NCBI GenBank assembly: GCA_945889495.1
Contig: CAMDBU010000003.1
Coordinates: 6,665-70,664 of the forward strand
DNA length: 64,000 nt
Reading direction: 5' to 3'
DNA from: Syntrophobacter sp. SbD2
Lineage (GTDB): Bacteria; Desulfobacterota; Binatia; UBA9968
Shown here piece after piece: positions 27,550 to 61,918 of this stretch (positions are counted from its first letter, which is position 1; each line of letters starts with the position of its first letter). Made by a program: the position numbers and the translations under genes. The notes under the pieces were generated by a model. It saw only the letters and a list, made by a program, of their open reading frames with translations. It searched no databases and was not told where the DNA came from.

Positions 27550-27669
27550 CCTGGGTTTCTACAACATTCCGGCGTTAACAAGCAATGGCGATGCCGCGGA
27601 GTAAATTAAAGTGGCAATTGGCTTGGGCCATTGGTAATGTAGGGAAAATCCCCGCCGTGGAGGTTTACG

Positions 27670-32444: not shown

Positions 32445-33428
32445 TTATTGCGCTTTGTTCAGCTCCGCGAAAAACCCGCTCCTATCCAGCTCCTGGACGA
32501 AACGGCTGTCGACGAAATCCTCCGGCTTGGCGCTTTTCGCCTTGGGGTTGCGCGCCTCAGTGGCTTTGAGGATGGTCGATAGCCCGGCGAGCGCTGGATA
32601 GGGCGGCAGAATGTAATTCTGCTTGACGATCCAATTGTAACTTTCGTCCAGCAGTTCCTTGTCGTCGTTGCGAAAATATTTCGCCATAACTTTCTTCGCG
32701 AAGTTGGCGTCGCGCTTGGCCAACGCGACCCCTTCGGCCTGGGCCATCAGGAAACGGCGCACGACGGCGCCGTTAGTGCGCAAGTAGCTGCGCGTCGCCA
32801 CCATGCCGTTGAACGGAAAGTTGGCTTCCAGCTTCGACACGTCGAGGATTTCGCGCAGGCCGAGTTTGCGCGCGCGGATGGTCGCTGGCGCGGTCAGCGC
32901 CACCGCTTGAATGCGGTTGGTGTTCAACGCCGACACGCTTTCCGCCGGGCCGCCGGTTTGGAGGATCGCCACATCTTTTTCCGGCTGCAAGCCGAATTTC
33001 GCCACCGCGAAGCGGGCGGCGAAGTCGGAGTTAGCGCCATAGCGCGTCACGCCGATCGCTTTGCCTTTCAAGTCGGCGACGGTCTGAATCTCCGGCCGGC
33101 TGTAGATGTAATAAACGAAGTTTTTAATCAGCGTGGTGATGATGACCAGATCGCCGCCGGCGAGGTTGGCGTCGATCACCGCCGCCGCGCCGATTTGGCT
33201 AAAGGGCATTTCGCCGGCGAGCATGGTGCTGACCACCAGCGAGCTGCCGGACAAGCGCAGCAGCTCCACCGACAAGCCATGCTTCTCGTAAAGCCCGGCA
33301 TCCTTGGCGAACCAGAGCGCCGCTTCGGTGGCGGAGTCCGACGAACGGGCGACGCGAATCTTGTCGAGCTGTTGGGCGTCGGCGAGGTTGGACCAGCAGA
33401 GAATTGCGATTAGCAGTAGCGATTTCAT
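32445..33428 (-). CDS. ABC-type substrate-binding protein, NMT1/SsuA/TauA-like; orphan
   Basis: start taken at MKSLLLIAILCWSNLADAQ (AAGGAG RBS upstream); the 5' extension in the ORF track is treated as spurious. Confidence 0.75.
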   Translation of the reverse strand: MKSLLLIAILCWSNLADAQQLDKIRVARSSDSATEAALWFAKDAGLYEKHGLSVELLRLSGSSLVVSTMLAGEMPFSQIGAAAVIDANLAGGDLVIITTLIKNFVYYIYSRPEIQTVADLKGKAIGVTRYGANSDFAARFAVAKFGLQPEKDVAILQTGGPAESVSALNTNRIQAVALTAPATIRARKLGLREILDVSKLEANFPFNGMVATRSYLRTNGAVVRRFLMAQAEGVALAKRDANFAKKVMAKYFRNDDKELLDESYNWIVKQNYILPPYPALAGLSTILKATEARNPKAKSAKPEDFVDSRFVQELDRSGFFAELNKAQ

Positions 33429-33543
33429 TAATGCTCCTTCGGTTGGCGGTACCATAGGGAAAGGCCGCTGGAGCGTCAAGCCGGGTTGACAGCGGCGCGC
33501 CATCGCAGTTAGTTGGGCCATCATCACAGTTTCGGAGGACTTC

Positions 33544-34617
33544 ATGGCAACCGACACCACCGGCATGACCCGCATCAATCACGAGAAACTGATTCGCTTC
33601 GTCACCCGTTCGTTTGAAAAACTCGGCGTACCGACGAGCGACGCCGAGATCGCGGCAAATGTATTGGTCGCCTCCGACTTGCGCGGCGTCGACACCCACG
33701 GCGTGATTCGTTTCAATCCCAACGCCTGGTACGTCAAATGGCTGCGCGACGGCGTCATGACCGCCAAGCCGAACATTCGCGTGATCACCGAGACCGCGTC
33801 CACGGCGCTCCTCGATGCCGATAACGGTATGGGCTTTGTCGCCGGCCACCGCGCCATGGAGCTAGCGGTCAAGAAAGCCAAACAGACCGGCGTCGGCATC
33901 GTGACAGTTCGCAACAGCCGCCACTACGGCATGTCGGCGTATTATTCCATGCTCGCCTTGCCACACGACATGATCGGCATCGCCATGACCAACGCCAGCC
34001 GCCAAGTGGTGCCGACCTTCGGTCGCGAAGCGCGCTTCGGCACCAACCCGATCTCGTTTGCTATCCCAGCCAAGGACGAACAGCCCTTCGTCCTCGACAT
34101 GGCGACGACGACCGCGGCGGCGGGAAAATTGGAATTAGCGATCCGTCTAGGCAAGCCGGTGCCGACCGGTTGGGCGTTGAACGAAAAAGCCGAAGCGACG
34201 ACGGATCCGAAGATTGCCCAGTCAGCGCGCCGCCTGCTGCCGCTGGGTGGCACGCGCGAGAGCGGCAGTCACAAGGGCTACGGCTTAGGAATTCTCGTGG
34301 AAATTCTCTGCGGCGTGCTCACCGGCACGGTAACGGCACTTAACGCCAACCAAGAACCGCGCGGGCATTTATTTGGCGCTATTGATCCAGCAGCCTTTCG
34401 CCCGGTGGCGGAATTCAAAGCCGACATGGACCGCCTGATCCGCGAACTAAAATCGACCCCGCCCATCGCAGGCGAAAGCCGCGTCTACGTCGCCGGCGAA
34501 ATCGAATTCGAAACCGCCGAGGAGAGAAGCGAACGCGGCATTCCACTGCATAGCTCGGTGCTCAAAGGTTTGCGCGATGTCGGCACCGAGTTGGGCGTGC
34601 CGTATGATTTGGAGTAG
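33544..34617 (+). CDS. Ldh_2 family oxidoreductase (malate/L-lactate/sulfolactate dehydrogenase family)
   Basis: 357 aa; Ldh_2 hallmarks …LRGVDTHGV…GFVAGHRAMELAV…HYGMSAYY…. Confidence 0.8.
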   Translation: MATDTTGMTRINHEKLIRFVTRSFEKLGVPTSDAEIAANVLVASDLRGVDTHGVIRFNPNAWYVKWLRDGVMTAKPNIRVITETASTALLDADNGMGFVAGHRAMELAVKKAKQTGVGIVTVRNSRHYGMSAYYSMLALPHDMIGIAMTNASRQVVPTFGREARFGTNPISFAIPAKDEQPFVLDMATTTAAAGKLELAIRLGKPVPTGWALNEKAEATTDPKIAQSARRLLPLGGTRESGSHKGYGLGILVEILCGVLTGTVTALNANQEPRGHLFGAIDPAAFRPVAEFKADMDRLIRELKSTPPIAGESRVYVAGEIEFETAEERSERGIPLHSSVLKGLRDVGTELGVPYDLE

Positions 34618-34687: not shown

Positions 34688-35662
34688 TTATTTGAACACC
34701 CCCGCCGCCACTAATTCCTTCACAAACCGATCGTCAGCGAACTGATCCCACTTAGCACTCTTCGCTTTGGGATTTTCCGAGGCGGCAAGCACCGCTTCGA
34801 TGGCTTGTTGGTTGGGCGTGGGGATGCGTTCCCAGCCGGGCTCGTTGGTGGCGAGCGATTCCTGCAGCTGGGCGGGGTCGGTGATCTTGGTGTATTTGGA
34901 CATGATTGAAATCGCGTCGGCGCGGTTTTTACGGGCGTAGTCGATGCCTTCGGCGGCGCTGCGAACGAAGCGGCGCACCAGATCCGTATTCTCCTTGATG
35001 AACGAGCGGGTGGTGCCGATGGCGTGCTGGACGAAGGGGATTTTCAGCGCGCCGATATCGACCAGCTCCTTGAAACCCAGGTTGCGCGCGGTGAGCGTGC
35101 TCGGCGCCGAGACGATCGCCGCGTCGATGATGCCTTGCTGCAAGGCGCCCACCAGCGCTGGCAGTTCTTTCAGATAAACGAACTTCACATCGACGTCGGG
35201 CTTCAAGCCGTTTTGCGTCAACACCATGCGGCCGGCGATGTCGGTGGGCGTGCCTTTGTTGGTGGCGCCGATGGTTTTGCCGGCGAGGCTTTTCACGCTC
35301 GTGATCTCCGGCTTGCTGTAGATGGAAAAGACGAAGGTGTTGACCGGATTTAAAATATAAACCGTGTCGGCACCGGCGAGATTGGCTTCGATGATCTGCG
35401 GGCCGGCGGTGGTAAAATGTATTTTGCCGCCGACCAGCGCCTGCACTGCCTGAGTGGTCGGAATATGGGTGAGATCGATGTTGAGGCCGTTTTTCTTAAA
35501 CAGGCCGCGCTCCTGGGCGATCCATAAATAAATTGGATCGGTGGCGATGACGCCGTAGACCGCGGTGGCCTGGAGTAGCGGCGTCTCGGCGGCGCGGCTC
35601 AAGCCGCACAGGAGGAACACCCACAGTAAAGACCAGATCGTTGTGAGCTTGGTTCTTCGCAT
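34688..35662 (-). CDS. ABC-type substrate-binding protein, NMT1/SsuA/TauA-like; orphan
   Basis: signal peptide …LLCGLSRAAE; NMT1-like fold. Confidence 0.75.
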   Translation of the reverse strand: MRRTKLTTIWSLLWVFLLCGLSRAAETPLLQATAVYGVIATDPIYLWIAQERGLFKKNGLNIDLTHIPTTQAVQALVGGKIHFTTAGPQIIEANLAGADTVYILNPVNTFVFSIYSKPEITSVKSLAGKTIGATNKGTPTDIAGRMVLTQNGLKPDVDVKFVYLKELPALVGALQQGIIDAAIVSAPSTLTARNLGFKELVDIGALKIPFVQHAIGTTRSFIKENTDLVRRFVRSAAEGIDYARKNRADAISIMSKYTKITDPAQLQESLATNEPGWERIPTPNQQAIEAVLAASENPKAKSAKWDQFADDRFVKELVAAGVFK

Positions 35663-36310: not shown

Positions 36311-37258
36311 TTATTTCTGATTTAACTCGGCCATCACTTCATTGACGAATCGCAGATCCATATATTCGCGCACCGGCCGCTTCGGTTTGGTATTCAATGC
36401 CACGGCCTGCCACTGGGCCATCAGTTCGACGCCCTTTTCCGTCGGCACCGGCTGCAGCGCTTCCTTGACTAAGTTGTAAGCGTCGACGGAAACTTCCCGC
36501 TCCATGCGCCAGTGCTTCATCATGGTTAGAATCGCGTCTTCGGGATAGTCGCGGGTATGAATCACGCCGCGCACCATGGCGCGCACCATGCGTTTGACGA
36601 ACTGCGGGTTTTCTTTGATGGTCTTACCCGTCGCCGCCAGACCGCTAAAGGAAGTCTCTTTGAAGATGTCGGCCAAGTTAACCAGCCGTTTGAAACCGGC
36701 CTTCAAGGCGACGTAGTCGGCCGGCGGCGCCAACAGCGCGGCTTGAATGATCCCCTGCTGCATGGCGGCGATCTTCGGCTGGCTGCCCGGGATGCTGACA
36801 TACTGCACGTCCTTGTCGGGATTCATCTTGTAAAGTTCCAACAGCGCCTTGGTGCCGGCGAAGGTCGAGCCGCCGAAGCTGACGCCGATTTTCTTGCCCT
36901 TCAGATCGGCGACGGTCTTGATGTCTTGGGTCACCATCATGGAAAAAGTCGGCCGGCCGATTTGCTGGGCCAGGAGAATAATGTCGCTGCCTTCCCAGAT
37001 CGACGGCATCTGCGGGCCGACGGAAAAAATGAAATGAATCTGATTGCCGAGGAGCGCCTGCACCGCGGTGACCGCGTTGCGGACGGAAATTAACTCGGCG
37101 TCCAACCCCTCACGCTTGTAGAAACCTTTTTCCAAGGCGACGAAGGCGGGGAGAAATTGCACGTTGGCCGACGGATAGGCGCCGCGGACGACTTCGCCAC
37201 TGGCAGCGAGCGGGCTGAACAGAATCGCTGCGAGCAGCGCGATAGTGGACAATGCCAT
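36311..37258 (-). CDS. ABC-type substrate-binding protein, NMT1/SsuA/TauA-like; orphan
   Basis: signal peptide [21 protein letters not shown]; NMT1-like fold. Confidence 0.75.
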
Positions 37259-37261
37259 AAA

Positions 37262-38251
37262 CTATTTGCTCTCCCCTTTGAGTTCTTGAATCAACGACAG
37301 ATCGAAATATTTGTACGGCGGGATCTGGCCGAAGGCCGGATCTTCGTAGACCATGGTCTTCAAGACGTTGACGATCGCTTCTTCGGTGGGAAACAGGTCG
37401 GGCCGAGCATCCGCCTTCATGATCCGATAGGAATATTCCAAACTGTCGCGGTCGTCGATTTTCAACACTTGGGACATTACATTGAGCGTCGATTCCTTGT
37501 CGTTCATCATCAGACGGACGGAATCGGCGAAGCCGCGCAGATAATTTTTCACCGTGTCGCGGTTCTTCGCCATGTAGGAGCGCCGAGTAACATTGATGCC
37601 CCAGATATATTCCAGCGGGATCGGCAGCACGGTGAGGCCGAGCTTCTCGGCGTGGCGCCCTTGCAAGGACGAGATCAAGGTTGCGTCGAGGTTGCCCGAG
37701 ACTACCGCGGCCAAGCGCACCGGCGAGCCGCCCGACAACGGCAAGATCTGCACGTCGGTCTTGGGATTTAGGCCGGCTTTAGTCAGCATGAAATTGATAA
37801 ACGCTTCGGCGCGTCCGCCGGCGCCGCTGGAGGCGATCTTTCGGCCTTTTAGTTCTCTAATGTCCTTGATCTTGATCCGGCTGCCGACGCTGTAGGGCGA
37901 GGCGTTGTTCCACGACGCGATGCCCACCGCGTCCAAGCCCTGCTTGCCCAAGTAAAAAAGGCCGGTGGAGCTGGAGGTCAGGAACTGGACGCTGTCGGAC
38001 ATCAGCGCCTGCATGTTCATCTGCTCGTTACGCGTGGCGATCACCTCGACGGTCAGGCCATAGCGCTGAAACACGCCCCGCTTGGCGCCGAGATAAATCG
38101 GCAAGGCGCCGGTGAGCGCGCCCGGAGTAGCGACCCGCAACAGGGTTTGCGCCGCGGCCGGCTGGGCTGCGCAGGCACAGAGCAGCAGTGCGAGCTTAAT
38201 GAACCGAGAATAATCGATCATATCGGGGAAGTGTCGCCTTAAGCTAAACAA
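37262..38251 (-). CDS. ABC-type substrate-binding protein, NMT1/SsuA/TauA-like; orphan
   Basis: signal peptide …LLCACAAQPAAAQ; starts 3 nt after the upstream paralogue ends (tandem pair). Confidence 0.7.
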   Translation of the reverse strand: MFSLRRHFPDMIDYSRFIKLALLLCACAAQPAAAQTLLRVATPGALTGALPIYLGAKRGVFQRYGLTVEVIATRNEQMNMQALMSDSVQFLTSSSTGLFYLGKQGLDAVGIASWNNASPYSVGSRIKIKDIRELKGRKIASSGAGGRAEAFINFMLTKAGLNPKTDVQILPLSGGSPVRLAAVVSGNLDATLISSLQGRHAEKLGLTVLPIPLEYIWGINVTRRSYMAKNRDTVKNYLRGFADSVRLMMNDKESTLNVMSQVLKIDDRDSLEYSYRIMKADARPDLFPTEEAIVNVLKTMVYEDPAFGQIPPYKYFDLSLIQELKGESK

Positions 38252-39151: not shown

Positions 39152-39580
39152 ATGATTCATCTCGATCAAAGTATAATTTATCAGGTCGTCCTGTTCGTCG
39201 TCCTCTGGCTGATCCTCAACAAGCTACTGTTCCAGCCCTATTTGCGCTTGTTGGAAGAGCGCGAGCATAAGACCACCGGGGCGCAGCATGATTCCGTCGA
39301 TTTGGAGCATGAAGGCGCCAAGTTGAAGGCCCAGTTCGACGAAAAAATGGCCCAGGGGCAAGCCGCCGGCTACGCGGCTAAAGAAGCGATCAACCAAACC
39401 GCCCGCCAGGAGCGGGAAAAAATTCTTAGCCAAGCGCGCGATGAGGCGACCCGCAGCCTCGAACAGGTTAGACAGGAAGTCGCCACCGCCATGGAGCTGG
39501 AAAAACAGTTGGCCGCCGCCGAAGTGAGCGCGGTAGCCGCCGACATGGTGAATAAAGTTTTAGGGAGGAAAGTCGGGTGA
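39152..39580 (+). CDS. atpF2: F0F1 ATP synthase subunit b'
   Basis: 142 aa with a single N-terminal TM and a long charged helix; first of two b-type genes. Confidence 0.7.
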   Translation: MIHLDQSIIYQVVLFVVLWLILNKLLFQPYLRLLEEREHKTTGAQHDSVDLEHEGAKLKAQFDEKMAQGQAAGYAAKEAINQTARQEREKILSQARDEATRSLEQVRQEVATAMELEKQLAAAEVSAVAADMVNKVLGRKVG

Positions 39581-40143
39581 ACAGCCAGGATTTTCTCAAC
39601 CTTTTCGCCGTCGCGCAGGCATGGGCGTCCGAAGCCGGCGGTCATGGCGCGGCGCACCATGTGCCGTCGATCTCCGAAGTCATCTTCCCTGCCCTCAATT
39701 TTCTCATTTACGCTTTCATCATCGTCAAATACGCCTTGCCGGCGGTGCGGAGTTTTCTCAAGAGCCGGCGCGAAGAAGTGATCGCCACTATGACCCAGGC
39801 CTCGGCCAAGAAAGCCGCGGCCCAGGCGCTGGTCGATGACTACAAAACCAAACTCACCGGCGTGGACCGGGAAGTGCTAACCCTGCAAGCGACGCTGCGC
39901 GACGAGGGCGAGCGCGACAAAGCCAAGCTGATTAGCGATGCCAACGCCATGGCGGCGAAGATCAAAGCCGACGCCATGGTGCTGGCCGATCAAGAAGTGA
40001 AAATGGCGCGCCAGCAGATTCGCGAAGAGATGGCGCTCCAAGCCGAAGCCAGCGCGCGGGCATTGCTCCAACGCAATCTATCGGTGGACGATCAAAACCG
40101 TTTGGCGGATGAATTTATTCAAAGCATTGGGCAGACGCGATGA
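39577..40143 (+). CDS. atpF: F0F1 ATP synthase subunit b
   Basis: 188 aa b-type subunit; overlaps the neighbouring genes by 4 nt on each side. Confidence 0.75.
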   Translation: MNSQDFLNLFAVAQAWASEAGGHGAAHHVPSISEVIFPALNFLIYAFIIVKYALPAVRSFLKSRREEVIATMTQASAKKAAAQALVDDYKTKLTGVDREVLTLQATLRDEGERDKAKLISDANAMAAKIKADAMVLADQEVKMARQQIREEMALQAEASARALLQRNLSVDDQNRLADEFIQSIGQTR

Positions 40144-40682
40144 TTGAAGGCAGCTTAGCACGCAGGTACACCAGGGCGCTGTTTCAGCTGGCGCGCGAAG
40201 GCGGCCAGGAAGACGCTGTGGGCGTCGAAGTGGGGCAGTTTTACGCCGACTACACGAGCTCCGCGCTCCAGCAAGTGCTCACCAATCCGGCCTTCGCGCT
40301 GGACAGCCGCAAGCAAATCCTCAATCAGGTCGCGCAAGGCCAGAAGCTCTCGTCATTGACAGTTCGATTCTTGTCGCTGCTTCTGGAGCGCGACCGTTTG
40401 AGCCATTTGACCGGCATCGTCAACTGTTACCGCCGCCTGCTCAACGAAGCGCGCGGCCGGGTCGATGCCAAAGTGGTCAGCGCCACCGCGCTTGAGCCGG
40501 TGATGGTCGAGCGCGTACGCGCCCAGCTGCGCAGTATTTCCGGCAAAGAAGTGATTCTCCAACAGGTCGTCGATGGCGATTTACTCGGCGGCCTGCAGGT
40601 GGAGCTCGAAGGCAAGATCTACGACGGCAGCGTGCGCACGCAATTGGCAAAGATGAAACAGCGCATCGCGCGCGGTTATTAG
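40140..40682 (+). CDS. atpH: F0F1 ATP synthase subunit delta (OSCP)
   Basis: 180 aa; position between atpF and atpA. Confidence 0.8.
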   Translation: MIEGSLARRYTRALFQLAREGGQEDAVGVEVGQFYADYTSSALQQVLTNPAFALDSRKQILNQVAQGQKLSSLTVRFLSLLLERDRLSHLTGIVNCYRRLLNEARGRVDAKVVSATALEPVMVERVRAQLRSISGKEVILQQVVDGDLLGGLQVELEGKIYDGSVRTQLAKMKQRIARGY

Positions 40683-40696
40683 TTAAGGAGTAAGAG

Positions 40697-42205
40697 ATGG
40701 AGATCGGAACAGCGGAAATCAGCCGAATCATCAAAGAGCAGATTCGCGATTACGATAAGACGGTTGAGATCCAGGAAGTCGGCTCGGTGTTGTCCACCGG
40801 CGACGGTATCGCGCGTATTCACGGCCTCGACAAGGTCGCCGCCGGCGAACTCTTGGAATTCCCCCATGGGATTTTCGGCATCGCGCTCAACTTGGAAGAA
40901 GACAATGTCGGCGCCGCGCTGTTCGGCGAAACTCACATGATCAAAGAGGGCGACACGGTCAAACGGACCGGCCGTATCGCCGAAGTTCCAGTCGGTAAAG
41001 CCTTGATCGGCCGGGTGGTCGACGCCCTGGGCAATCCCATCGACGGCCGCGGTCCCATCGAAACCACCGAGCGGCGGCGCATCGAACTCAAAGCCCCCGG
41101 CATCGTCGCCCGCCAGCCGGTCAAAGAGCCGCTGCAGACCGGTCTCAAAGCCATCGACGGCATGATCCCCATCGGCCGCGGCCAACGCGAGCTGATCATT
41201 GGCGACCGCCAAACCGGCAAAACCGCCGTCGCTCTCGACGCCATCATCAACCAAAAGGGCGGCAACGTCATCTGCATCTACGTCGCCATCGGCCAGAAAC
41301 GTTCCACCGTGGCGCAGGTCGTCGACCGTTTGCGCGAAGCCGGCGCCATGGAATACTCCATCGTGGTCGCGGCCACCGCGTCTGAATCCGCGCCGTTGCA
41401 GTTCATTGCGCCCTACTCGGGCTGCACCATGGGCGAATTTTTCCGCGACAACGGCGGCCATGCGCTGGTGATCTACGACGATCTGTCCAAACACGCCGTG
41501 GCCTACCGGCAATTGTCCTTGCTGCTGCGCCGTCCGCCCGGACGCGAAGCCTATCCCGGTGACGTTTTCTATTTGCATTCCCGTTTGCTCGAGCGCGCGG
41601 CGAAAATGAGCGCCGACCGCGGCGGCGGTTCACTGACCGCCTTGCCAATCATCGAAACCCAAGCCGGCGACGTTTCGGCGTACATCCCGACCAACGTCAT
41701 ATCGATCACCGACGGGCAGATTTTTCTCGAAAGCGATCTCTTTTATTCCGGTGTCCGGCCGGCGATCAACGTCGGTATTTCGGTCTCCCGGGTCGGCGGT
41801 AACGCGCAGATCAAGGCGATGAAGCAAGTCGCCGGCACGCTGCGTTTGGATCTTGCCCAGTACCGGGAAATGGCCGCCTTCGCCCAGTTCGGTTCCGATC
41901 TCGATGCCGCGACACAAAAGCAGCTGAACCGCGGCGCGCGTCTGGTCGAACTGCTCAAGCAGGGCCAATACCAGCCGCTGGCAGTCGAGCAACAGGTAGT
42001 CATCCTTTACGCCGGCACCACCGGCCAGGTCGACGATCTACCGGTGGCTTCGCTCAAGCGCTATGAGCAGGAACTATTCGCCTTCATCAACTCGCGCCAT
42101 CCCGATGTCTTCTCCGACATCCTGACCAAGCGCGAATTGGACGGCGACCTGCGCGCCAAGCTCAACAAAGTGTTGGAAGAGTTCAAAGGGGTGTTTAAGG
42201 CTTAG
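40697..42205 (+). CDS. atpA: F0F1 ATP synthase subunit alpha
   Basis: Walker A GDRQTGKT; full-length 502 aa alpha subunit. Confidence 0.97.
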
Positions 42206-42274
42206 TTGCCAGTTCCCAGTTGTTAGTTCCGAACCACTAGCAACTGCCAACTAGCGACTAGAAACTATCGAATC

Positions 42275-43141
<867 letters not shown>

Positions 43142-43195
43142 AAATCGTGATCGTCGCTCGTGATCGTGTTCGTAAAGACTGGGAACACGGATTGA

Positions 43196-44653
<1,458 letters not shown>

Positions 44654-44726
44654 TTAGGCATGAGGCGCGAGGCGCGAGGCTTGAGTCTGACTTCGGACTC
44701 GCGCCTCATACCTTTCGCCTCGCGCC

Positions 44727-45155
44727 TTGGTATTTTCCATGGCAGACAAGATCAAACTAAGAGTGGTCACGCCGAGCCGGCTGGTTCTCGAAGAGGACGT
44801 CGACGAGGTCAGCGCGCCGGGGGAACTGGGCGAGTTCGGCGTGTTGCCCGATCATATTTCGTTCCTGTCGACTCTGGTGGCCGGCGAGATGAGCTACAAG
44901 CAGGGCGCCGCCCGTCATGCTTTGGTGGTCGGCGGCGGCTATGCCGAGGTTCTCGACAACGTCATGACCGTCCTCGCCTCGGCGGCGGAGTTCGCCGGCG
45001 AGATCGACAGCGCACGCGCCCAGCGCGCCAAGGAGCGCGCTGAGAAGCGCATGGGCGAAGTTAATTTCGATGACCCCGAATACCCGCAGTTGGAAGAAGC
45101 CCAGCGCCGCGCCCTGGCCCGGCTCCAGGTTGCTAGTAAAGAAACAAGAAGATAA
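44727..45155 (+). CDS. atpC: F0F1 ATP synthase subunit epsilon
   Basis: 142 aa with beta-sandwich and helical hairpin; last gene of the operon. Confidence 0.85.
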   Translation: MVFSMADKIKLRVVTPSRLVLEEDVDEVSAPGELGEFGVLPDHISFLSTLVAGEMSYKQGAARHALVVGGGYAEVLDNVMTVLASAAEFAGEIDSARAQRAKERAEKRMGEVNFDDPEYPQLEEAQRRALARLQVASKETRR

Positions 45156-45194
45156 GTAAATAAGTAAAGCGAAAGCAGTCAAGGAGGAAGTTCT

Positions 45195-46328
45195 ATGGCC
45201 GAAGCAGAAAAACAAGAACCCGTAATCACCATGTGGAGCAAGGAATTCACCTACGACCGCTGGATGAAGTCCAAAGGCATCCCAATCCACAAGGGTTATT
45301 TCATCCCCGATCTCCGCACCGTCGAGTTGGAATGGTGGGAAGAACGAGGCTGCAAAGCCGCCTTCATCCAGCTCTGGGGCCAGGAAGGCGTCAGCGCCGC
45401 CCGGGTCACCGAAATTCCTCCCGGCAAATCTTTGCCGCCAGTGAAGTTCGCCTTGGACGAAGTGGTCTACGTTTGCGCCGGCCGCGGTTTGACCACCGTC
45501 TGGTCTGGCGAAGGCAAGCCCAAGAAGAACTTCGAATGGCAAGAGCACTCGATGTTTCTCATCCCGCGTAACCACTGGCATGTGTTCAGCAACATGACCG
45601 GCGACAAACCGGTTAAGCTATTTCACTATAGCTATATGCCGATGGCGATGTCGGCGTTGCCCGAACCCGACATGTATTTCAACAATCCTTACGAATCGAA
45701 GATCACCGCCGATCAGGGTGACTTCTATTCCGAAGCCAAGATGGTTCAGGCCAAGGACGCCGACGAAGGCTTGGGCATGCGCGCTTTCTGGTACGGCAAC
45801 TTTTTCCCTGACATGCGTGCTTGGAACAAGCTCGACGCCAACGAACGGCGCGGCGCCGGCGGCAAGAGCGTGTTCATGCAGTTCCCCAACTCCGAACTCA
45901 CCGCCCATATGTCGGTGTTCGCGCCCAAGACTTATAAGAAAGCGCACCGCCATGGTCCGGGCCGGGCGATCATCATTCCCGCCGGCGAGGGTTACTCGAT
46001 TATGTGGGAAGAGGGCAAAGAGAAAATCGTTTGCCCATGGCATGAATGCAGCATGATCACGCCGCCAGACAAATGGTTCCACCAGCATTTCAATGCCGGC
46101 GGCGACATGGCGCGTTATTTGGCGCTCCATCCGCCCATGCAGTTCCATGGCCACGCGGAGAAGATCGAAGACCGGGCCAAGGATCAGATCGAGTATCCCA
46201 ACGAGGATCCGTTCATTCGTCAGAAGTTCGAAGAAGAGCTGGGCAAGCGCGGCATCGAGAGCATCATGCCGGCCGAAGCCTACTCCAACCCGGACTACGA
46301 CTGGTCCAAGGCGATGGGCAAGCAATAG
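45195..46328 (+). CDS. bicupin protein (gentisate/1-hydroxy-2-naphthoate dioxygenase-like); metal site only in the C-terminal cupin
   Basis: two cupin barrels; the C-terminal one carries AHRHGPGRAIIIPAGEGY … WFHQH metal-ligand motifs, while the N-terminal cupin lacks the HxH. Confidence 0.55.
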   Translation: MAEAEKQEPVITMWSKEFTYDRWMKSKGIPIHKGYFIPDLRTVELEWWEERGCKAAFIQLWGQEGVSAARVTEIPPGKSLPPVKFALDEVVYVCAGRGLTTVWSGEGKPKKNFEWQEHSMFLIPRNHWHVFSNMTGDKPVKLFHYSYMPMAMSALPEPDMYFNNPYESKITADQGDFYSEAKMVQAKDADEGLGMRAFWYGNFFPDMRAWNKLDANERRGAGGKSVFMQFPNSELTAHMSVFAPKTYKKAHRHGPGRAIIIPAGEGYSIMWEEGKEKIVCPWHECSMITPPDKWFHQHFNAGGDMARYLALHPPMQFHGHAEKIEDRAKDQIEYPNEDPFIRQKFEEELGKRGIESIMPAEAYSNPDYDWSKAMGKQ

Positions 46329-46355
46329 ATCATAATTAACCAGAAATTCGATTAC

Positions 46356-46385
46356 GGAATCCCCGCTCCAGCGAGCGGGGATTCC
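46356..46385 (+). terminator. perfect 12-bp GC-rich hairpin between the bicupin and eutA-like genes
   Basis: ggaatccccgct-ccagcg-agcggggattcc, followed by tgttatt. Confidence 0.45.
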
Positions 46386-46405
46386 TGTTATTGGGGTAGG
46401 ACAAA

Positions 46406-47950
46406 ATGGCGGACGCAATCCAGAGGCTACAGATGCACGACGATATTTACGATCACGACCATCCGGATAATTTCATTATCAAAGAGGATGAGATCGTTAC
46501 CGACATCGAAGGATTGGAGATGTTTTCGCTCAAAAGCGTCGGCATCGACATCGGCTCTTCGACTTCGCATTTAATTTTCTCGCATATCACACTGCGCCGC
46601 GAAGGCGCGGCCTTGTCGGGAAAATTCCGCGTCACCGGCCGCGAGGTGCTCTACCGCTCGCCGATCATGCTGACGCCCTATATCTCGGCGACCAAGATCG
46701 ACACCGACAAGATCAATGACTTCATCCACAACGCCTACAAAGAAGCCGGCTTGACGCCGGAGGATGTCGACACCGGCGCAGTGATCATCACCGGCGAAGC
46801 TTTGAAAAAAGAAAATGCCCAGCCGATCGTTGAGAACTTCGCCAAATACTCCGGTAAGTTTATCTGCGCGTCGGCGGGCCACAATCACGAAGCGTTGCTG
46901 GCGGCCTACGGCTGTGGCGCGGTGGATCTATCGAAGGGCGAGCATAAGACCGTGCTCAACGTCGACATGGGCGGCGGTACGACTAAATTTTCTTTGGTGG
47001 AAGACGGCGTGGTGACGCAGACCGCGGCGATTAGCATCGGCGCGCGCTTGATCGCCTACGACGAAAAGGAACAGATCACGCGCATTGAAGATCCGGGCCG
47101 GACGATGATGAAAGAGCTTGGCCATAAAGTCGAGATCGGCCAGAAAATCAGCGAGAAAATGAAAGAAGACTTCGGCGCCTATATGGCGAAGATTCTCTAC
47201 GAGGTCATCGAAACCGGGCCTAAATCGCCGATGGCGACCTCGCTCATGGTGACGCCGCCGTTCGTCAACTACAGCGGCTTCAAGCAGATACAGCATTTAG
47301 TTTTTTCCGGCGGCGTCTCCGAGCATGTCTACGACCGCGATGCGAAGTCCTATGGCGACATCGGCCCGGTGCTGGGCCGGAACATGCGCGATTATCTAAA
47401 AAAGCTGCCCAAGGATGTCCTGCGCGAACCCATCGAGGGCATTCGCGCCACGGTCATCGGCGCCGGCGAGTACACCATCCAGGCCAGCGGCAACACCAGC
47501 TACGTCTCCAATGAAAAAGCTTTGCCGGTGCATGGCTTAAAAGTTATCCAAGCACCGGTACGCGAAGGCGCATCGGTGGCCGACGGCATCAAACAGGCGC
47601 TGCGCAAGTTCGACCTCGGCTGTTTTACCTCCGGTCTGGCGTTGTCTTTAACCGTCAGCGGCGTACCCGACTATCAATCGGTGCGGCGCATCGCCGAAGG
47701 CGTCGCTGAGATCCTCAAGGGCGCCGACGACGCCAACTGCCCGCTCTACTTGACCTTGGACTTAGACATCGCCAAGTCGCTCGGCGCGATCCTGCGCGAG
47801 GAGCTGAAAATTACCCGCGACATCATCGCCATCGACGGCATCGAAGTCGGCGATTTGGACTACATCGACATCGGCGAATGCTTGGGCATCACCGAAGTCA
47901 TTCCGGTGACGGTCAAGTCGCTGATGTTTCCGACCACAGCCAGCGAATAA
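46406..47950 (+). CDS. eutA: EutA-like ASKHA-fold protein (ethanolamine ammonia-lyase reactivase homologue)
   Basis: …VGIDIGSSTSHLIFS…GAVIITGEA…LNVDMGGGTT… parallels the EutA motifs VGIDIGTTTTQVIFS / GAIIITGE / NIDIGGGT. Confidence 0.7.
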   Translation: MADAIQRLQMHDDIYDHDHPDNFIIKEDEIVTDIEGLEMFSLKSVGIDIGSSTSHLIFSHITLRREGAALSGKFRVTGREVLYRSPIMLTPYISATKIDTDKINDFIHNAYKEAGLTPEDVDTGAVIITGEALKKENAQPIVENFAKYSGKFICASAGHNHEALLAAYGCGAVDLSKGEHKTVLNVDMGGGTTKFSLVEDGVVTQTAAISIGARLIAYDEKEQITRIEDPGRTMMKELGHKVEIGQKISEKMKEDFGAYMAKILYEVIETGPKSPMATSLMVTPPFVNYSGFKQIQHLVFSGGVSEHVYDRDAKSYGDIGPVLGRNMRDYLKKLPKDVLREPIEGIRATVIGAGEYTIQASGNTSYVSNEKALPVHGLKVIQAPVREGASVADGIKQALRKFDLGCFTSGLALSLTVSGVPDYQSVRRIAEGVAEILKGADDANCPLYLTLDLDIAKSLGAILREELKITRDIIAIDGIEVGDLDYIDIGECLGITEVIPVTVKSLMFPTTASE

Positions 47951-47973
47951 GTTTGTTATTGGATAAATATTAC

Positions 47974-48010
47974 AAAAGGCTCCGCCCGCGCGGGGCCTTT
48001 TGTGTTTTTG
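47974..48010. terminator. bidirectional intrinsic terminator
   Basis: aaaaggctccgc-ccgc-gcggggcctttt hairpin with an A-run on one side and a T-run on the other, followed by ttttgtgtttttg. Confidence 0.8.
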
Positions 48011-50910: not shown

Positions 50911-52509
50911 TTACGACTTCTTCCTCTGCCCGGTCTGCTTCTTACCAGTCTCAAAATAATCGCCCTTGACCGCCAGATCTGCTTCCTCTTCGTCCTGCTT
51001 GGTCCAGGCGCCCAGGCTGTAGCCGAACCAGGGCATGCGCGGTTTGAGCGGCGGCAGCTCGAGCTCTTCCCAAATCTGTTTGGAGCGCTCCATGAATTCT
51101 TTTTTCGGCAAGGACACCGGCGTGTAGGGCCAGGGGCGGATAGCGTTGATCAGCAGGGCCGAAGTTGACGACGCGCGCCGGTCCTCATGTTCCGAGCCGG
51201 GTGGGTATGTCGACGGATCGAGGCCGGGCATTTTACCTTTGGAGATCTCGACATCCTCGCCCGGGCGCATGTTGTAGCACAGCGCCCAATTGATCATCGC
51301 CGGGTCTTGAATGTCGATGTCTTCATCCACGGCGATACAGACTTTGGCGTAGCTGCCGTTGAAGCCGGCGGTGGCGTGGAGCGCGCGCCAGGCCTCAGCT
51401 TTAGTCGCGTTGCGCATCTTGATCACGCAGAAAGCCTGGCCGCTGCCGCTCACTTCGTCATGCAGCGCGACGTCGATGACCGCTGAGTTGCCGCTGTCTT
51501 GGCGCAAGAGTTTGTAAATAATTTTCTCGGTTCCCGTATGCTTGATCTTGCTCGATTCGCTGGGCGGAAACTGGCTCATCAGCGCGGTGTAAATCGCGCC
51601 CTGCCGGTGGGTGATGCAGGTGACTTCGAGGAATGGCGATTCGGTGCGATGGCCCATGTAGCCGGGATACTCGCCGAAGGGCCCTTCGGGCTCGACGATG
51701 TCGGTGGGAATGGTCCCTTCGATGATGATTTCCGCGGTGGCCGGCACGAGCAAGTCCACCGTCTTCGCTTGGACGACTTCCACCGGCGCGCCGGCCAAGC
51801 CGCCGGCTAGACGATATTCGTCGAAATCGTAGGGAATTTTCGCCGTAGCGGAATAAGCGATGCTCGGCACCACGCCGATGGCGATGCAGGCTTCCAAGCG
51901 CTGCCCTTTGGCTTTGGCCTTGCGCCAATGCTGTCCCATATGTTGCGAGGTAAATAGACCGCCGGTGCGGTTGGCCGATTTGATCTGGCTGCGGTAGTTG
52001 CCGATGTTGTAAATGCCGGTCTCGGGATCCTTGGTGATCCAGTTGGCCGAGGTTAAATACGGTGCGTTGTCGAATCCCGGCGTCGAGATCGGCACCGGGA
52101 TCATGTCGAGGCCGTGGCCATTGAGAATATCTTGGCCCTGCCAGACGATCTCATGGACAGGCGCCGAAGTTACTTTTATCGGGTCGAAAGGGTTTAACTG
52201 CGCTTGGCTCCAACGCTCGGCGATTTGCTCGGGCTCGCACATCATGCCGATGGCGTAGATTTCCGTAGTCGCGGCTAGGGTGCCGACGGTTACCGGCATC
52301 GAATAGCGTTTGCCCTTGGAGTCGATGACGTTCTCGAACATGAACGCTTTCCGGTCGCGTTCTTCCAGGCCGCGAAACTGCCAGCGCACCAGCGGCATCA
52401 GCTCGGTGTCTTTGTTGATTTCCCGGGTGATGCGAATCAGTTTGCCGCGCTCTTCAAGCGCCTTTAAATGCTCACGAAAGTCACGATAATATTTCACGCT
52501 GTTGGCCAT
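50911..52509 (-). CDS. UbiD-family (prFMN-dependent) decarboxylase
   Basis: …EGPFGEYPGYMG… UbiD signature; start taken at MANSVKYY (GGGAGA RBS upstream). Confidence 0.85.
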   Translation of the reverse strand: MANSVKYYRDFREHLKALEERGKLIRITREINKDTELMPLVRWQFRGLEERDRKAFMFENVIDSKGKRYSMPVTVGTLAATTEIYAIGMMCEPEQIAERWSQAQLNPFDPIKVTSAPVHEIVWQGQDILNGHGLDMIPVPISTPGFDNAPYLTSANWITKDPETGIYNIGNYRSQIKSANRTGGLFTSQHMGQHWRKAKAKGQRLEACIAIGVVPSIAYSATAKIPYDFDEYRLAGGLAGAPVEVVQAKTVDLLVPATAEIIIEGTIPTDIVEPEGPFGEYPGYMGHRTESPFLEVTCITHRQGAIYTALMSQFPPSESSKIKHTGTEKIIYKLLRQDSGNSAVIDVALHDEVSGSGQAFCVIKMRNATKAEAWRALHATAGFNGSYAKVCIAVDEDIDIQDPAMINWALCYNMRPGEDVEISKGKMPGLDPSTYPPGSEHEDRRASSTSALLINAIRPWPYTPVSLPKKEFMERSKQIWEELELPPLKPRMPWFGYSLGAWTKQDEEEADLAVKGDYFETGKKQTGQRKKS

Positions 52510-52694
52510 CGGAATCTCCCTGTCCTTGGTACTCCCGTCATCTATTGTCTGGGCCACCGAGGTTGTCAAGCGTTGGCCGGTGAACGCGAGGACGAACCTG
52601 AGGGCTGAACGCAACAAGATATCCTTGTTAGAGCTAGACCGGGTCTGGTACACTAGCGTTTCACTACCGAATTTATCTGAGCAGATTCGTCGCA

Positions 52695-55157
52695 ATGGCC
52701 AACACTCATAGCAAGCCTTCCTCCAGTCTCGGCAATAGTTCGTCAACACCCCGATCCGAGCCGGCGGTCCAGTCGCGTTACCTTTGGATACTCGCAGTGC
52801 TGTTGGTTGGGTTATTTTATTTGATCGATCTGTGGACGCCTGGGCATATCGCGATTCATATCAGTTACGTCGCCGCGCTGGTGTTAGCCGTGGCCCTGCC
52901 TGGAAAAAGGGAGAAAATTGCCGTGGCGGTGGCCTGTACGGTCATGCTGGTGGCGGACGTTTTTTTCGTCCACTCCAACTCGGGCTCGCCAACCTGGGTC
53001 GGATTGGTCAATCAAGGGTTCGCGCTTTTGATGGTCTGGAGCGTGACAACCTTGGGCTTGCGTCATCACGCGGTTGAAGCCCGCCAGCGCGATAGCGAGC
53101 GCGTCGCCAACGAGCGCATGGCGCTGCTCAATACCATCTACTCCTCGGCGCCGGTGGGCTTATGCTTCGTCGATCTCAATTTACGCTATCTATCGATGAA
53201 CGCCGCGTTGGCCGAGATGAACGGCCGGCCGGCGGAATATTATATCGGCAAAACCATCCGCGAAGCGATTCCAGAACTCGCCGATATCATCGAAGTTCAC
53301 TACCGACGGGTGATCGAAAGCGGTCAGCCTATCCTCGATGTGGAAATCAAAGGCGTAATCATGACCCAGCCGGGAGAGCACCGCGCATGGCTGGCAAGTT
53401 ATTTCCCAGTGCATAATCCGGGCGGCCAACTGCTCGGCGTCAACGTCGCGGTGCGCGATATCACCGCGCGCAAGCAGGCTGAAGCCGACACGCTATTTCT
53501 CCTCGATCTCGCCGAATGTATCCGTTTCGCCGCCAATGCCGATGAATTGGCCTGGGCGGTCGCGGTGGCTTTGGGCGAGCATGCCAAAGTCAAGCGTTGC
53601 GCGTTTATTGAGATCGATACGGCAAGCAACCGGTTCACCTTGCAGCGTGATTACCACCCGCATATCCCATCGTTGGTTGGCAGCTACCCACTCGGAATGT
53701 TCGGACCGAGTTTGATCGACACCGGCAGCGCCGGCCAAACCACTACCATTGCCAATGTCACCCTGGACCTACGGACCAGGGACCATATCGAAGCTTACCG
53801 ATCGGTGGGCGTTCAGTCGTTTGTCGCCGCGCCGCTGCTCCGCGACGGCGCGCTGGTTTGCGCCTTGATCATGGCCGACACCGATCCGCGCCAATGGAGC
53901 GAACGGGAAATCTCGCTGATCAATTTGGTGGCTGAGCGCACTTGGCTGGCGGTGGAAAAACTCCGCCTTGACGAGGCCCTGCGCGCCAGCGGCGAGGCGC
54001 TGCGCGAGGCTGACCGGCGCAAGGATGAGTTCTTGGCTACGCTCGCCCATGAGCTACGCAACCCGCTGTCGCTGGTGCGCAACGTCGTCACCTTGCAACA
54101 AAGCTCCCAAAGCCCGCTGCCCGATCCCCACTGGGGCCAGGACATCATCGATCGCCAGGTGAAGTATCTCACCCGCTTGACCGACGATCTATTCGATGTC
54201 AGCCGCATCACCCGGGAAAAATTGGTTCTGCAAAAGGAGCCGCTCAATTTGAGCGAGATCGTCAAGGCGGCGGTGGAATCGAGCCGGCCGCTGATCGACC
54301 AACGGCAGCATGAACTGACCGTCACCATGTCGCAGGATTCGATCTATGTCGACGCCGACCGGCTGCGGTTTACCCAGGTGATCATGAACCTGTTGAACAA
54401 CGCCGCCAAGTACACGCCCGACCCCGGCCATATCTGGCTCAACGTCGAGCAGGCTGGCGACACCGTGGTGATCCGGGTCAAGGATACCGGCGTCGGCATC
54501 GCGGCGGAGAGCTTGCCCCATGTCTTCGAGCTGTTTTACCAAGTTGACCGGTCCTATACGCGCAGCGAAGGCGGTCTCGGTTTGGGCTTGACGCTGGTGC
54601 ACCGGCTGGTGGAATTGCATGGCGGTAAAGTCGAGGTGCGCAGCGAAGGCATGAACCGTGGCAGCGAATTCATCGTCCAATTGCCGGTGACCGCCCAGCG
54701 GCCGGAAAGCGAGAGTTTGGAATCCGATCGAGTCGAAGAACTTCCCTTGCCAGCGCGCTGCCGGCGCATTTTGGTCGCCGATGATTTCCCCCAGTCCGCC
54801 GAGACCCTGGCGCGCCTCTTGGAAAAAGATGGCAACGAGGTGCAGATCGCCGAGGATGGTGTCGCCGCAGTGGAGGCGGCGGCGGAATTTCTCCCGGATA
54901 TCGTTCTCATGGACATCGCCATGCCGCGCCTCGACGGCTATCAAGCGGCCAAACAGATCCGCCAACAGCCCTGGGGCAAACAGATGATTCTCATCGCGCT
55001 CACCGGCTGGGGCCAGCAGCAAGACCGCCGGCGCACCCAGGAAGCCGGCTTCGACGCCCATCTGACCAAACCGGTCAACTACGCCGCGATCATGGATTTG
55101 CTCAGCACTCTGTCAAACGCGCCCACCGTTGCGGCAAGTCATGGCCTACCGCATTGA
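52695..55157 (+). CDS. hybrid sensor histidine kinase (membrane N-domain, PAS, GAF, HisKA, HATPase_c, receiver)
   Basis: HisKA H-box ATLAHELRNPL; HATPase N, G1 and G2 boxes; C-terminal REC with …LVADD…MDIAMP…; 820 aa. Confidence 0.9.
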   Translation: MANTHSKPSSSLGNSSSTPRSEPAVQSRYLWILAVLLVGLFYLIDLWTPGHIAIHISYVAALVLAVALPGKREKIAVAVACTVMLVADVFFVHSNSGSPTWVGLVNQGFALLMVWSVTTLGLRHHAVEARQRDSERVANERMALLNTIYSSAPVGLCFVDLNLRYLSMNAALAEMNGRPAEYYIGKTIREAIPELADIIEVHYRRVIESGQPILDVEIKGVIMTQPGEHRAWLASYFPVHNPGGQLLGVNVAVRDITARKQAEADTLFLLDLAECIRFAANADELAWAVAVALGEHAKVKRCAFIEIDTASNRFTLQRDYHPHIPSLVGSYPLGMFGPSLIDTGSAGQTTTIANVTLDLRTRDHIEAYRSVGVQSFVAAPLLRDGALVCALIMADTDPRQWSEREISLINLVAERTWLAVEKLRLDEALRASGEALREADRRKDEFLATLAHELRNPLSLVRNVVTLQQSSQSPLPDPHWGQDIIDRQVKYLTRLTDDLFDVSRITREKLVLQKEPLNLSEIVKAAVESSRPLIDQRQHELTVTMSQDSIYVDADRLRFTQVIMNLLNNAAKYTPDPGHIWLNVEQAGDTVVIRVKDTGVGIAAESLPHVFELFYQVDRSYTRSEGGLGLGLTLVHRLVELHGGKVEVRSEGMNRGSEFIVQLPVTAQRPESESLESDRVEELPLPARCRRILVADDFPQSAETLARLLEKDGNEVQIAEDGVAAVEAAAEFLPDIVLMDIAMPRLDGYQAAKQIRQQPWGKQMILIALTGWGQQQDRRRTQEAGFDAHLTKPVNYAAIMDLLSTLSNAPTVAASHGLPH

Positions 55158-61171: not shown

Positions 61172-61918
61172 GTGAAAATCAGCAAAAAAGACACTGACGA
61201 ATTGAAACGCAAGGTTGCGCTCGGCAACCGCATCATGTTCCACCAAGGCCTGGCCGATTACCATGGCCATGTCAGCGCGCGCATTCCAGGCACGCGCAAG
61301 TTTTTTATCAAGCCGGTGCTCGCGCCGCTGGGCGAAGTGGAGCCCAGGCATATTATCGAAGTCGACATCGATCAGTACTTCGAAGTCTGCGAGGACAATT
61401 ACGCCAAGGCCGGCAACAAACGCAGCGTGACTAAAATCAAAAATCCGCCGCGGGAAACGATGATTCACGCGGCGATCTACAACGCCCGGCCGGATGTCAA
61501 TTCGGTGGTCCATACTCATCAGACCATCGCCACGGCGTTTTCCGTCGCTGGCACGCCGATCCTGCCGATCTATAACCAGGCCGCGGTGTTCGCCCCGGAA
61601 ACACCGATTTTCCCGAGCCCACGCTTGATCTATACCATGCGCGATGGCCGCGAGATCTGCGCCACCCTGCAAGACCGCATGGCGATGTTGCTCAAAGGCC
61701 ATGGCATTATTGTGTGTGGCGACAGCTTAGAATATGCTACGGTCCACGCGATTTACTTGGAGCGCACCGCCTACATGCAGTTCATCGCCAGCTGCGTCGG
61801 CAAGCCGTCGGTCATGCCCCAGGCTGAGATCGATTACATGAAAGAAAATATGATGTTCCGTTCCTACGATGCCTTCGCCTATTTTCGCTCGCAGTTGCCC
61901 AAAGGCGCCCGGCTGTAG
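61172..61918 (+). CDS. class II aldolase/adducin family protein
   Basis: 248 aa with the class II aldolase/adducin N-terminal-domain pattern …HGHVSARIPG…VVHTHQ…. Confidence 0.75.
   Translation: MKISKKDTDELKRKVALGNRIMFHQGLADYHGHVSARIPGTRKFFIKPVLAPLGEVEPRHIIEVDIDQYFEVCEDNYAKAGNKRSVTKIKNPPRETMIHAAIYNARPDVNSVVHTHQTIATAFSVAGTPILPIYNQAAVFAPETPIFPSPRLIYTMRDGREICATLQDRMAMLLKGHGIIVCGDSLEYATVHAIYLERTAYMQFIASCVGKPSVMPQAEIDYMKENMMFRSYDAFAYFRSQLPKGARL

Follow-up and report, generated by a model that had tools for sequence, protein, structure and literature searches.

What a homolog of EutA, the reactivase of a B12 enzyme, does beside the gene of a cupin is the question raised by a locus in a 64,000-nucleotide stretch of DNA from Syntrophobacter sp. 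SbD2 (contig CAMDBU010000003.1), hereafter called the window. The locus comprises a 377-aa open reading frame (ORF; 45195–46328, forward strand), which encodes a bicupin, and a 514-aa ORF (46406–47950, forward strand), which contains the motifs VGIDIGSSTSH, GAVIITGE, and NVDMGGGTT. An initial annotation, made from the letters alone, had given these coordinates and motifs, which we reproduced in the sequence, and had proposed that the EutA-type ATPase services the cupin. This proposal is supported by the linkage of the two genes across phyla, the lack of eut genes nearby, and a histidine-bearing tail and a cysteine residue in the EutA-like protein, from which we infer the servicing itself. We consider it very probable that the two genes are functionally coupled, whatever the nature of the coupling. 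Judging from its sequence, the EutA-like protein may well be an ATP-dependent metallochaperone or reactivase dedicated to a three-histidine (3-His) bicupin dioxygenase, a proposal for which we regard the chances as evenly balanced. The features of the locus are as follows.

44727–45155, forward strand: atpC, encoding the F1 epsilon subunit (ORF list; Pfam ATP-synt_DE in the orthologous loci L001, L002, L004, and L005).
45156–45194, forward strand: 39-nucleotide (nt) spacer between atpC and the cupin gene (sequence; promoter and terminator scan).
45195–46328, forward strand: bicupin gene, 377 aa, of an uncharacterized family.
45327–45644, forward strand: N-terminal cupin barrel, about residues 45–150, without metal ligands (alignment; strands of the AlphaFold2 model).
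45867–46130, forward strand: C-terminal cupin barrel, about residues 225–312, with the 3-His site (alignment).
45945–45947, 45951–45953, 46080–46082, and 46086–46088, forward strand: codons of H251, H253, H296, and the second-sphere residue H298, respectively (sequence).
46356–46385, forward strand: intercistronic hairpin GGAATCCCCGCTC-CAGC-GAGCGGGGATTCC, with a 13-bp stem, followed by TGTTATT (scan).
46406–47950, forward strand: gene of the EutA-family ASKHA ATPase, a 514-aa ORF, or 505 aa from the conserved start at 46433.
46433–46537, forward strand: His/Asp-rich N-terminal tail MHDDIYDHDHPDNF...EDIEGLEMF, residues 10–44, outside the Pfam and NCBIfam EutA models.
46865–46867, forward strand: codon tgc of Cys154, specific to the cupin-linked subfamily (alignment; sequence).
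47971–48004, forward strand: terminator-like hairpin of 15 pairs followed by a T-run (terminator scan; sequence).

The initial annotation had called for a gene-neighborhood survey and held that its reading would fall if a B12-dependent lyase encoded elsewhere were the obvious partner of EutA and bicupins and EutA-like genes showed no conserved linkage. A search of one genome per species with a 10-sequence bicupin alignment returned 79 loci. In 31 of these 79 species-representative loci, an EutA homolog is located on the same strand within 450 bp of the bicupin, and the linked pairs come from Binatia, Dehalococcoidia/SAR202, other Chloroflexota, Acidocella (Alphaproteobacteria), and Micromonospora (Actinomycetota), that is to say, from at least 4 phyla, in both gene orders. 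The survey was positive, with the linkage recurring across phyla, and neither of the 2 refuting outcomes was observed. The pairing exceeds chance because 36 of the 40 EutA genes in these loci lie within 331 bp of a same-strand bicupin; among the other 4, 2 are at a locus edge, 1 is apparently broken, and 1 (in locus L053) is of a different kind (described below). Look-ups from the EutA side (P0127, P0393, P0395, P0428, and P0430) gave a bicupin beside an EutA-like gene in all 5 loci; directly upstream of P0430 itself is only a 100-aa product, and an intact cupin-EutA pair is located 5.7 kb downstream on the same contig. Many loci are arranged as cupin-EutA-cupin, those of Acidocella as eutA-cupin-eutA-cupin, and some SAR202 loci contain 2 long-diverged pairs. 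In a neighbor-joining tree of 116 bicupins, EutA linkage belongs to whole clades, and other clades are never linked. The two genes are inherited, and duplicated, together.

In most lineages, 2 diverged bicupins flank the EutA-like gene, the paralogs being about 66–76% or about 32–56% identical to the query. The cupin-EutA-cupin arrangement was observed in L002, L004, L005, L009, L015, L016, L061, and L073. In Binatia, 1 or 2 EamA-family permease genes are often found between the 2 bicupins, and the second cupin lies beyond EamA genes in L001, L008, L010, L012, and L013. The window and its closest relative, L007, have no second bicupin nearby.

Genes of the ethanolamine utilization system do not accompany the pair. 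Searches with tblastn using E. coli EutB, EutC, EutL, EutM, EutT, and EutJ returned only the EutA match in the 64-kb window and only EutA matches in 85 loci with about 1.4 Mb of flanks, and Pfam analysis of 46 of the larger ORFs of the window (about 40 of which belong to neither the module nor the atp operon) revealed no B12-dependent enzyme. The earlier observation that the window lacks eutB, eutC, shell, and B12 genes holds in these searches. Neither mark of a functional EutA equivalog, a score above the NCBIfam cut-off or an association with eutB and eutC in the window and the loci, was found. In L002 and L004, a B12-binding radical-SAM gene is located 4 or 5 genes downstream. The IMG/NCBI names of P0124, P0127, P0145, P0156, P0179, P0207, and others read EutA or ethanolamine ammonia-lyase reactivating factor, the sole exception among the specific names being P0179, labeled “recombinase”. 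The annotation as an ethanolamine ammonia-lyase reactivase is probably wrong here and looks like a systematic over-annotation by family name.

The EutA-like protein is a genuine member of its family, as the initial annotation had recognized. It matches PF06277 over nearly its whole length (404.4 bits against a cut-off of 27; residues 42–508 on model positions 3–474 of 475) and is full-length colinear with E. coli EutA (b2451) at 33% identity. Its scores against the NCBIfam EutA equivalogs are below all 4 cut-offs (best 351 bits against 598 for NF007992; 234–271 bits against 769–952 for the remaining 3 models). The segments DIGSSTS, DTGAVIITGEA, VDMGGGTT, FSGGVSE, and GIRATVIGA are invariant in 14 sequences including E. 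coli EutA, and the phosphate 1, phosphate 2, and adenosine motifs of ASKHA ATPases are intact. The cupin-linked EutA homologs are presumably active ATPases.

Comparison of the cupin-linked homologs with E. coli EutA and with the L053 homolog, which has no cupin beside it, revealed 2 additions. (i) The cupin-linked proteins carry 31–60 extra N-terminal residues outside the Pfam and NCBIfam models. In the window protein, Met10 (nt 46433, MHDDIYDHDH) is the conserved start and the point at which the database gene calls (505 aa) and the orthologs begin. With 1 exception, the extension is rich in His and Asp/Glu in the homologs with a complete N-terminus: examples are MHDDIYDHDHP in the window protein (from Met10), MHDADEDHEHF, MHDDADNPEHFH, and MHDEPWAHVHDPDE in others, and MSEHHHQGHHHDHGHHHHCHHDDHGHSH in Micromonospora, whose tail contains 17 His. 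The first Acidocella copy has an additional C-terminal tail with 10–12 His. (ii) Cys154 is present in all 41 cupin-linked homologs and is replaced by Val in E. coli EutA and by Ala in L053. Within the tail, His11 is found in 40 of 41 and His19 in 33 of 41 cupin-linked homologs. Neither these residues nor the His/Asp tail occur in E. coli EutA or L053. The tail is predicted to be disordered (predicted local distance difference test [pLDDT] <50 for residues 1–28 of the 505-aa model).

Metal-delivery proteins typically bear His-rich tails. By sequence, the tail has the His-rich or N-terminal Met-His-acidic segment of the metallochaperone type (MHD...DHxH or a longer His run), and an N-terminal Met-His-Glu forms the Ni site of the metallochaperone HypA (PMC7055735). 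The His/Asp tail and the invariant cysteine, both missing from E. coli EutA and L053, fit a metal-handling helper. They are the strongest mechanistic clue, in that the helper appears to be made to hold a metal ion rather than cobalamin.

The L053 gene (815–2299, reverse strand) encodes an EutA homolog (39% identity) that lacks both the His tail and Cys154; the gene downstream of it is aldo-keto-reductase-like. This locus may represent a third kind of client relationship of the EutA family.

The presumed client is a bicupin, with both double-stranded β-helix barrels in 1 chain. Pfam gives only weak Cupin_1 and Cupin_2 matches to the 377-aa protein, the AlphaFold model of which is confident (pLDDT 89; predicted template modeling score 0.89). 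In an alignment of 36 diverse homologs with identities down to 28%, the N-terminal barrel has no conserved His and retains the invariant residues G96, G98, W115, F121, and P124. In the C-terminal barrel, H251, H253, and H296 do not vary, and conservation reaches at least 90% for H238 and for the second-sphere residues H298 and N300. The 3-His site comes with conserved second-sphere residues (YKKAHRHGPG and WFHQHFN). The position of the canonical cupin Glu is occupied by Arg257/Ala258, and the N-terminal barrel is ligand-free; therefore, the protein has one 3-His site, in the C-terminal barrel. The initial annotation had described the site as HRH...E...H: the single C-terminal metal site stands, and the Glu ligand does not, the ligands being 3 His. 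Of the metal ligands of cupin motif 1 (HxH...E) and motif 2 (H...N), the C-terminal barrel has H251, H253, H296, and N300, invariant or nearly so, with Arg or Ala in place of the Glu, and the N-terminal barrel has none. The family also has a conserved C-terminal helical tail, QIEYxDEDPxIRxxFExEL.

The bicupin matched more than 7258 database clusters (1681 representatives at 50% identity), mostly from metagenome-assembled genomes of Candidatus Binatia or “Deltaproteobacteria”, and the named clusters carry only generic cupin-type or “hypothetical protein” labels. No NCBIfam model exists for the family; the sole matches are sub-threshold ones to the 5-aminosalicylate dioxygenase MabB (18.6 bits for the window bicupin and at most 39 bits for 10 paralogs, against a cut-off of 650), so the protein does not belong to the curated MabB/gentisate dioxygenase model. 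The solved structures nearest in fold are gentisate/salicylate 1,2-dioxygenases, with a Foldseek whole-chain TM-score of only about 0.45, and the family profile finds 3bu7 with an E-value of 7.6e-15. The metal barrel aligns with residues 99–170 in the N-terminal barrels of 2d40 and 2phd, which are their catalytic barrels, and with the C-terminal barrel of 3bu7; the same region aligns with the HRH...H cupin domains of gentisate dioxygenases. These findings make the bicupin an uncharacterized relative of the class III ring-cleaving dioxygenases in which the 2 barrels have changed places. Its sequence suggests that it is most likely a non-heme metal enzyme, namely an O2-dependent C–C or ring-cleaving dioxygenase of the gentisate/salicylate type. 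A second candidate, EutQ, the cupin of eut operons, was rejected, as the bicupin has no Pfam EutQ match and a different architecture.

The neighbors of the bicupins outside Binatia are aromatic-catabolic, which supports an oxygenase role in aromatic catabolism. On marine SAR202 contigs, the pair is embedded in arrays of 4 to 6 LigXa-type Rieske oxygenases, which also contain GFO/IDH/MocA, dienelactone hydrolase, and aminotransferase genes, and the EutA-unlinked paralogs adjoin genes of Rieske oxygenases, ABC-type binding proteins, Amidohydro_2, LigB, and class II aldolase. In Acidocella (L035 and L037; 5524–15625, forward strand), an operon-like run of IclR-like regulator, eutA-like, bicupin, eutA-like, and bicupin genes continues with an NMT1/PhtD-like gene and with genes for a Rieske ferredoxin, for a ferredoxin reductase, and for a Rieske oxygenase of the LigXa type. 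We assigned the regulator, ferredoxin, and reductase by reading the translations, and Pfam is the basis for the NMT1-like protein (a weak match) and for the family of the oxygenase. Although Acidocella includes cultured members, the L035 and L037 records are metagenome-assembled genomes.

We propose that the bicupin and the EutA-like gene constitute one functional module, in which the EutA-like protein would mature or reactivate the cupin. A metal ion would be bound by the flexible MHD...DHxH tail, probably with Cys154 as a further ligand, and the binding and hydrolysis of ATP in the ASKHA core would power a conformational cycle on the bound cupin. Its outcome would be either the insertion of the right metal or the removal of an oxidized or wrong metal or of a dead-end ligand. 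The model for such a cycle is the swap of damaged cobalamin by EutA and the diol-dehydratase reactivase, with a metal ion exchanged instead. By analogy to gentisate dioxygenase, the metal would be Fe(II); Ni or Co remain candidates given the HypA-like Met-His-Asp.

Several points weigh against this proposal. First, the interaction between the 2 proteins is something that we infer, as are the binding of metal by the tail, the direction of metal transfer, and the substrate. Second, about half of the bicupin paralogs have no EutA within 10 kb, and no active-site residue cleanly separates the linked from the unlinked cupins, the best discriminator near the metal being Arg257 (91% against 45%), which leaves 2 options: the helper works in trans, or bicupins do not generally require it. 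Third, the structure model of the EutA-like protein is only moderately confident and its fold matches are generic, and a sequence search for a solved structure matched none for EutA. Fourth, the canonical EutA mechanism is itself based on few studies. Finally, the His-rich tail is suggestive of metal handling, short of proof.

The main rival is a two-component enzyme, in which the EutA-like ASKHA subunit would activate the substrate with ATP and the bicupin would perform the next step, in chemistry of the phosphorylation or carboxylation type known from hydantoinase/oxoprolinase, acetone/acetophenone carboxylase, and sugar and acid kinases. We consider this arrangement rather unlikely, since the protein belongs over its full length to the EutA family and to no kinase or carboxylase family, the His/Asp tail and the subfamily cysteine would be unexpected in a substrate kinase, half of the homologous cupins have no such partner nearby, and no extra subunit of the hydantoinase B type was seen.

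It is improbable that the bicupin is a non-enzymatic protein of metal binding, storage, or sensing that is loaded or unloaded by the EutA-like ATPase, with a role in metal homeostasis that, in Binatia, is possibly tied to the expression of ATP synthase. In favor of this reading, the structural neighbors of the bicupin include seed globulins and MncA, the partner is rich in His, the Binatia context is a housekeeping one (the atp operon) rather than catabolic, and a ZnuA/ABC-3 transporter is located about 7 kb from the pair in L087. However, no metal transporter is consistently linked among the loci examined, the invariant 3-His and second-sphere residues together with best matches to ring-cleaving dioxygenases look enzymatic, and paralogs are found in catabolic clusters with Rieske oxygenases, LigB, and amidohydrolases.

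Very improbable is an ATP-driven electron-transfer activator (“archerase”, as in HgdC and BcrAD) that would re-reduce the cupin iron from Fe(III) to Fe(II). In activators of the HgdC type, a bridging [4Fe-4S] cluster is held by 2 Cys per monomer; a HgdC-type Fe–S activator was rejected because the EutA-like protein has 1 conserved Cys only, and its sequence family is EutA and not BcrAD. The least probable reading is that of an ordinary reactivase of ethanolamine ammonia-lyase or another B12 enzyme, with the gene of its client in some other part of the genome and a cupin synteny that is functionally meaningless. It has in its favor the Pfam EutA membership, the name that public sources give where they give a specific one, the confinement of the search for eutBC to the window and the locus flanks, and the radical-SAM gene of L002 and L004. 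Against it are the adjacency in at least 4 phyla in both orders and with duplicated pairs, the lack of any eutBC, shell, or eutT gene in the flanks of about 1.4 Mb, scores under every EutA equivalog cut-off, a His tail and a Cys154 that E. coli EutA does not have, and several genomes with at least 2 such EutA paralogs, each adjoining a cupin.

Under the proposed metal-handling role, a wider and more tentative statement can be made: EutA-family ASKHA ATPases with a HypA-like Met-His-Asp...His-x-His tail could form an unrecognized class that loads or repairs 3-His bicupins, with the B12 reactivase EutA as one specialized branch of a wider family of cofactor-exchange chaperones and the Binatia pair expressed from the ATP synthase operon, a generalization that we regard as somewhat doubtful.

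In the window, the pair follows the atpFHAGDC operon (39577–45155), of which atpC is the final gene and is directly 5′ of the module. The atpC stop codon ends at 45155 and the cupin ATG is at 45195; a strong Shine-Dalgarno sequence, AAGGAGGA, is present at 45182–45189, and the promoter and terminator scan of the spacer revealed neither a terminator nor a promoter-like site. The hairpin and T-run downstream of the EutA-like gene resemble an intrinsic terminator, and the module is closed as initially described. The order atp, cupin, EutA is also found in L007–L016, L023, and L087, and atp linkage in L001, L002, L004, and L005; the attachment is kept in many Binatia loci and not in other phyla. 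In the lineage of the window, the module and the ATP synthase operon are probably transcribed together. The description of a two-gene module stands in that the pair is linked across phyla, and it does not stand in that the pair is not free-standing, trailing atpC by 39 nt without a terminator, and is elsewhere often cupin-EutA-cupin or two pairs.

The GC-rich hairpin between the 2 genes was found where the initial annotation had placed it, with a stem of 13 rather than 12 bp and a 4-nt loop. It is kept (GGAATCCCCGC...GCGGGGATTCC) in L001, L005, and L007–L013, the closest orthologs (cupin identity of at least 85%), in which the loop-proximal substitutions preserve pairing. It is missing from the other clades compared, where the gap between cupin and EutA is 2–50 nt. 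No Rfam family matched it, and no second copy occurs in the window, so it is not a dispersed repeat. The hairpin may plausibly lower the expression of the EutA-like gene relative to the cupin, a role that would be lineage-specific; any regulatory role is local at best because only the closest Binatia orthologs conserve it. Unrelated hairpins occupy the equivalent site in some SAR202 loci. Strong GC-rich stem-loops of their own are found at the cupin-EutA junction of L052, L051, L057, and L058, and one of these (CAGGATTCCCGC...GCGGGAATCCTG) is similar to the Binatia hairpin. A stem-loop at the cupin-EutA junction may have arisen more than once.

Elsewhere in the window, 9 genes of periplasmic solute-binding proteins, 6 of the NMT1 type and 3 of the SBP_bac_6/8 type, are located within about 15 kb.

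23744–24703, 25458–26468, 28704–29708, 29709–30722, 31381–32409, 32445–33578, 34688–35662, 36311–37258, and 37262–38251: solute-binding protein genes.

No permease- or ATPase-like ORF of at least 180 aa lies beside these 9 genes, and the cluster is a striking expansion of orphan binding proteins. Two genes encode UbiD-family decarboxylases of the prenyl-FMN type (50911–52749, reverse strand; 61955–63541, forward strand); the first has a 94-residue N-terminal extension ahead of the UbiD_N domain, and the second is preceded by a class II aldolase gene (61172–61918, forward strand). A 512-aa ORF (8586–10124, reverse strand) and a 222-aa ORF (27559–28227, reverse strand) had no Pfam match at E ≤ 1e-5, the latter adjoining a DUF1646 gene (26494–27549).

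Literature searches found no description of an EutA-family protein that serves a cupin, of an ASKHA-type metallochaperone, or of the EutA-cupin pairing. Both protein families were already known; what would be new is a chaperone of cofactor exchange that has another class of client and an adaptation for metal binding. The label ethanolamine ammonia-lyase reactivating factor is attached to thousands of proteins in metagenomes of soil, groundwater, and the deep ocean, although none of those examined has an ethanolamine lyase gene nearby, and metabolic reconstructions of Binatia and SAR202 are distorted by it. Cupin metal sites are prone to mis-metallation. An ATP-driven metal loader or repairer of the ASKHA type would be a new cellular control over the metal of a cupin and would carry the concept of a reactivase to enzymes that do not use B12. 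The family of the client bicupins is large, has no characterized member, and is abundant in Binatia and marine SAR202, where it is part of oxygenase arsenals proposed to attack refractory aromatic matter; its reaction is therefore a gap in the biochemistry of the carbon cycle. The pair is small and amenable to a direct co-expression test.

Among known systems, EutA (PF06277; E. coli b2451) is the closest to the EutA-like protein, being a full-length colinear homolog with invariant ASKHA phosphate and adenosine motifs that is likewise encoded beside a presumed metalloenzyme client. The differences are that (i) the neighbor here is a 3-His bicupin rather than an adenosylcobalamin enzyme; (ii) the cupin-linked proteins have the His/Asp-rich N-terminal tail of 35–60 aa and Cys154; and (iii) no eutBC, shell, or eutT genes are nearby. 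Compared with the reactivases DdrAB/GdrAB (PDB 2d0o), the protein has no detectable sequence relationship and no small β subunit, the arrangement of an ASKHA large subunit and a small β subunit beside an adenosylcobalamin dehydratase was not found, and the cofactor of the client would be a bare metal ion, not cobalamin.

The bicupin shares only 10–17% identity with the gentisate/salicylate 1,2-dioxygenases (PDB 3bu7, 2phd, and 2d40) and MabB, and differs from the dioxygenases in having its 3 His in the C-terminal barrel, not in the N-terminal catalytic barrel, and in its conserved C-terminal helical tail. No gentisate dioxygenase is known to require an ATPase partner, and literature searches found none with such a partner.

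The metallochaperone systems HypA/HypB, UreE/UreG, and COG0523 (CobW, Nha3, and ZNG1) resemble the EutA-like protein in having a His-rich segment and a gene beside that of the client. The HypA/HypB-type systems couple nucleotide hydrolysis to metal delivery, which is what we propose for the EutA-like protein, and the Met-His-Asp at its extreme N-terminus is similar to the Met-His-Glu that forms the Ni site of HypA (PMC7055735). By contrast, the engine of HypB, UreG, and COG0523 is a P-loop SIMIBI GTPase/ATPase, whereas that of the EutA-like protein is an actin/Hsp70-like ASKHA ATPase, in which no P-loop (SIMIBI/G3E) NTPase domain was found.

A further parallel is provided by the XylT-type ferredoxins, which reactivate catechol 2,3-dioxygenase. 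XylT itself, a small ferredoxin with a [2Fe-2S] cluster, works by re-reducing Fe(III), without ATP or an ASKHA fold, and its client is an extradiol vicinal-oxygen-chelate enzyme, not a cupin; the EutA-like protein would share with it the role of a dedicated, co-encoded protein that keeps the iron center of a ring-cleavage dioxygenase active.

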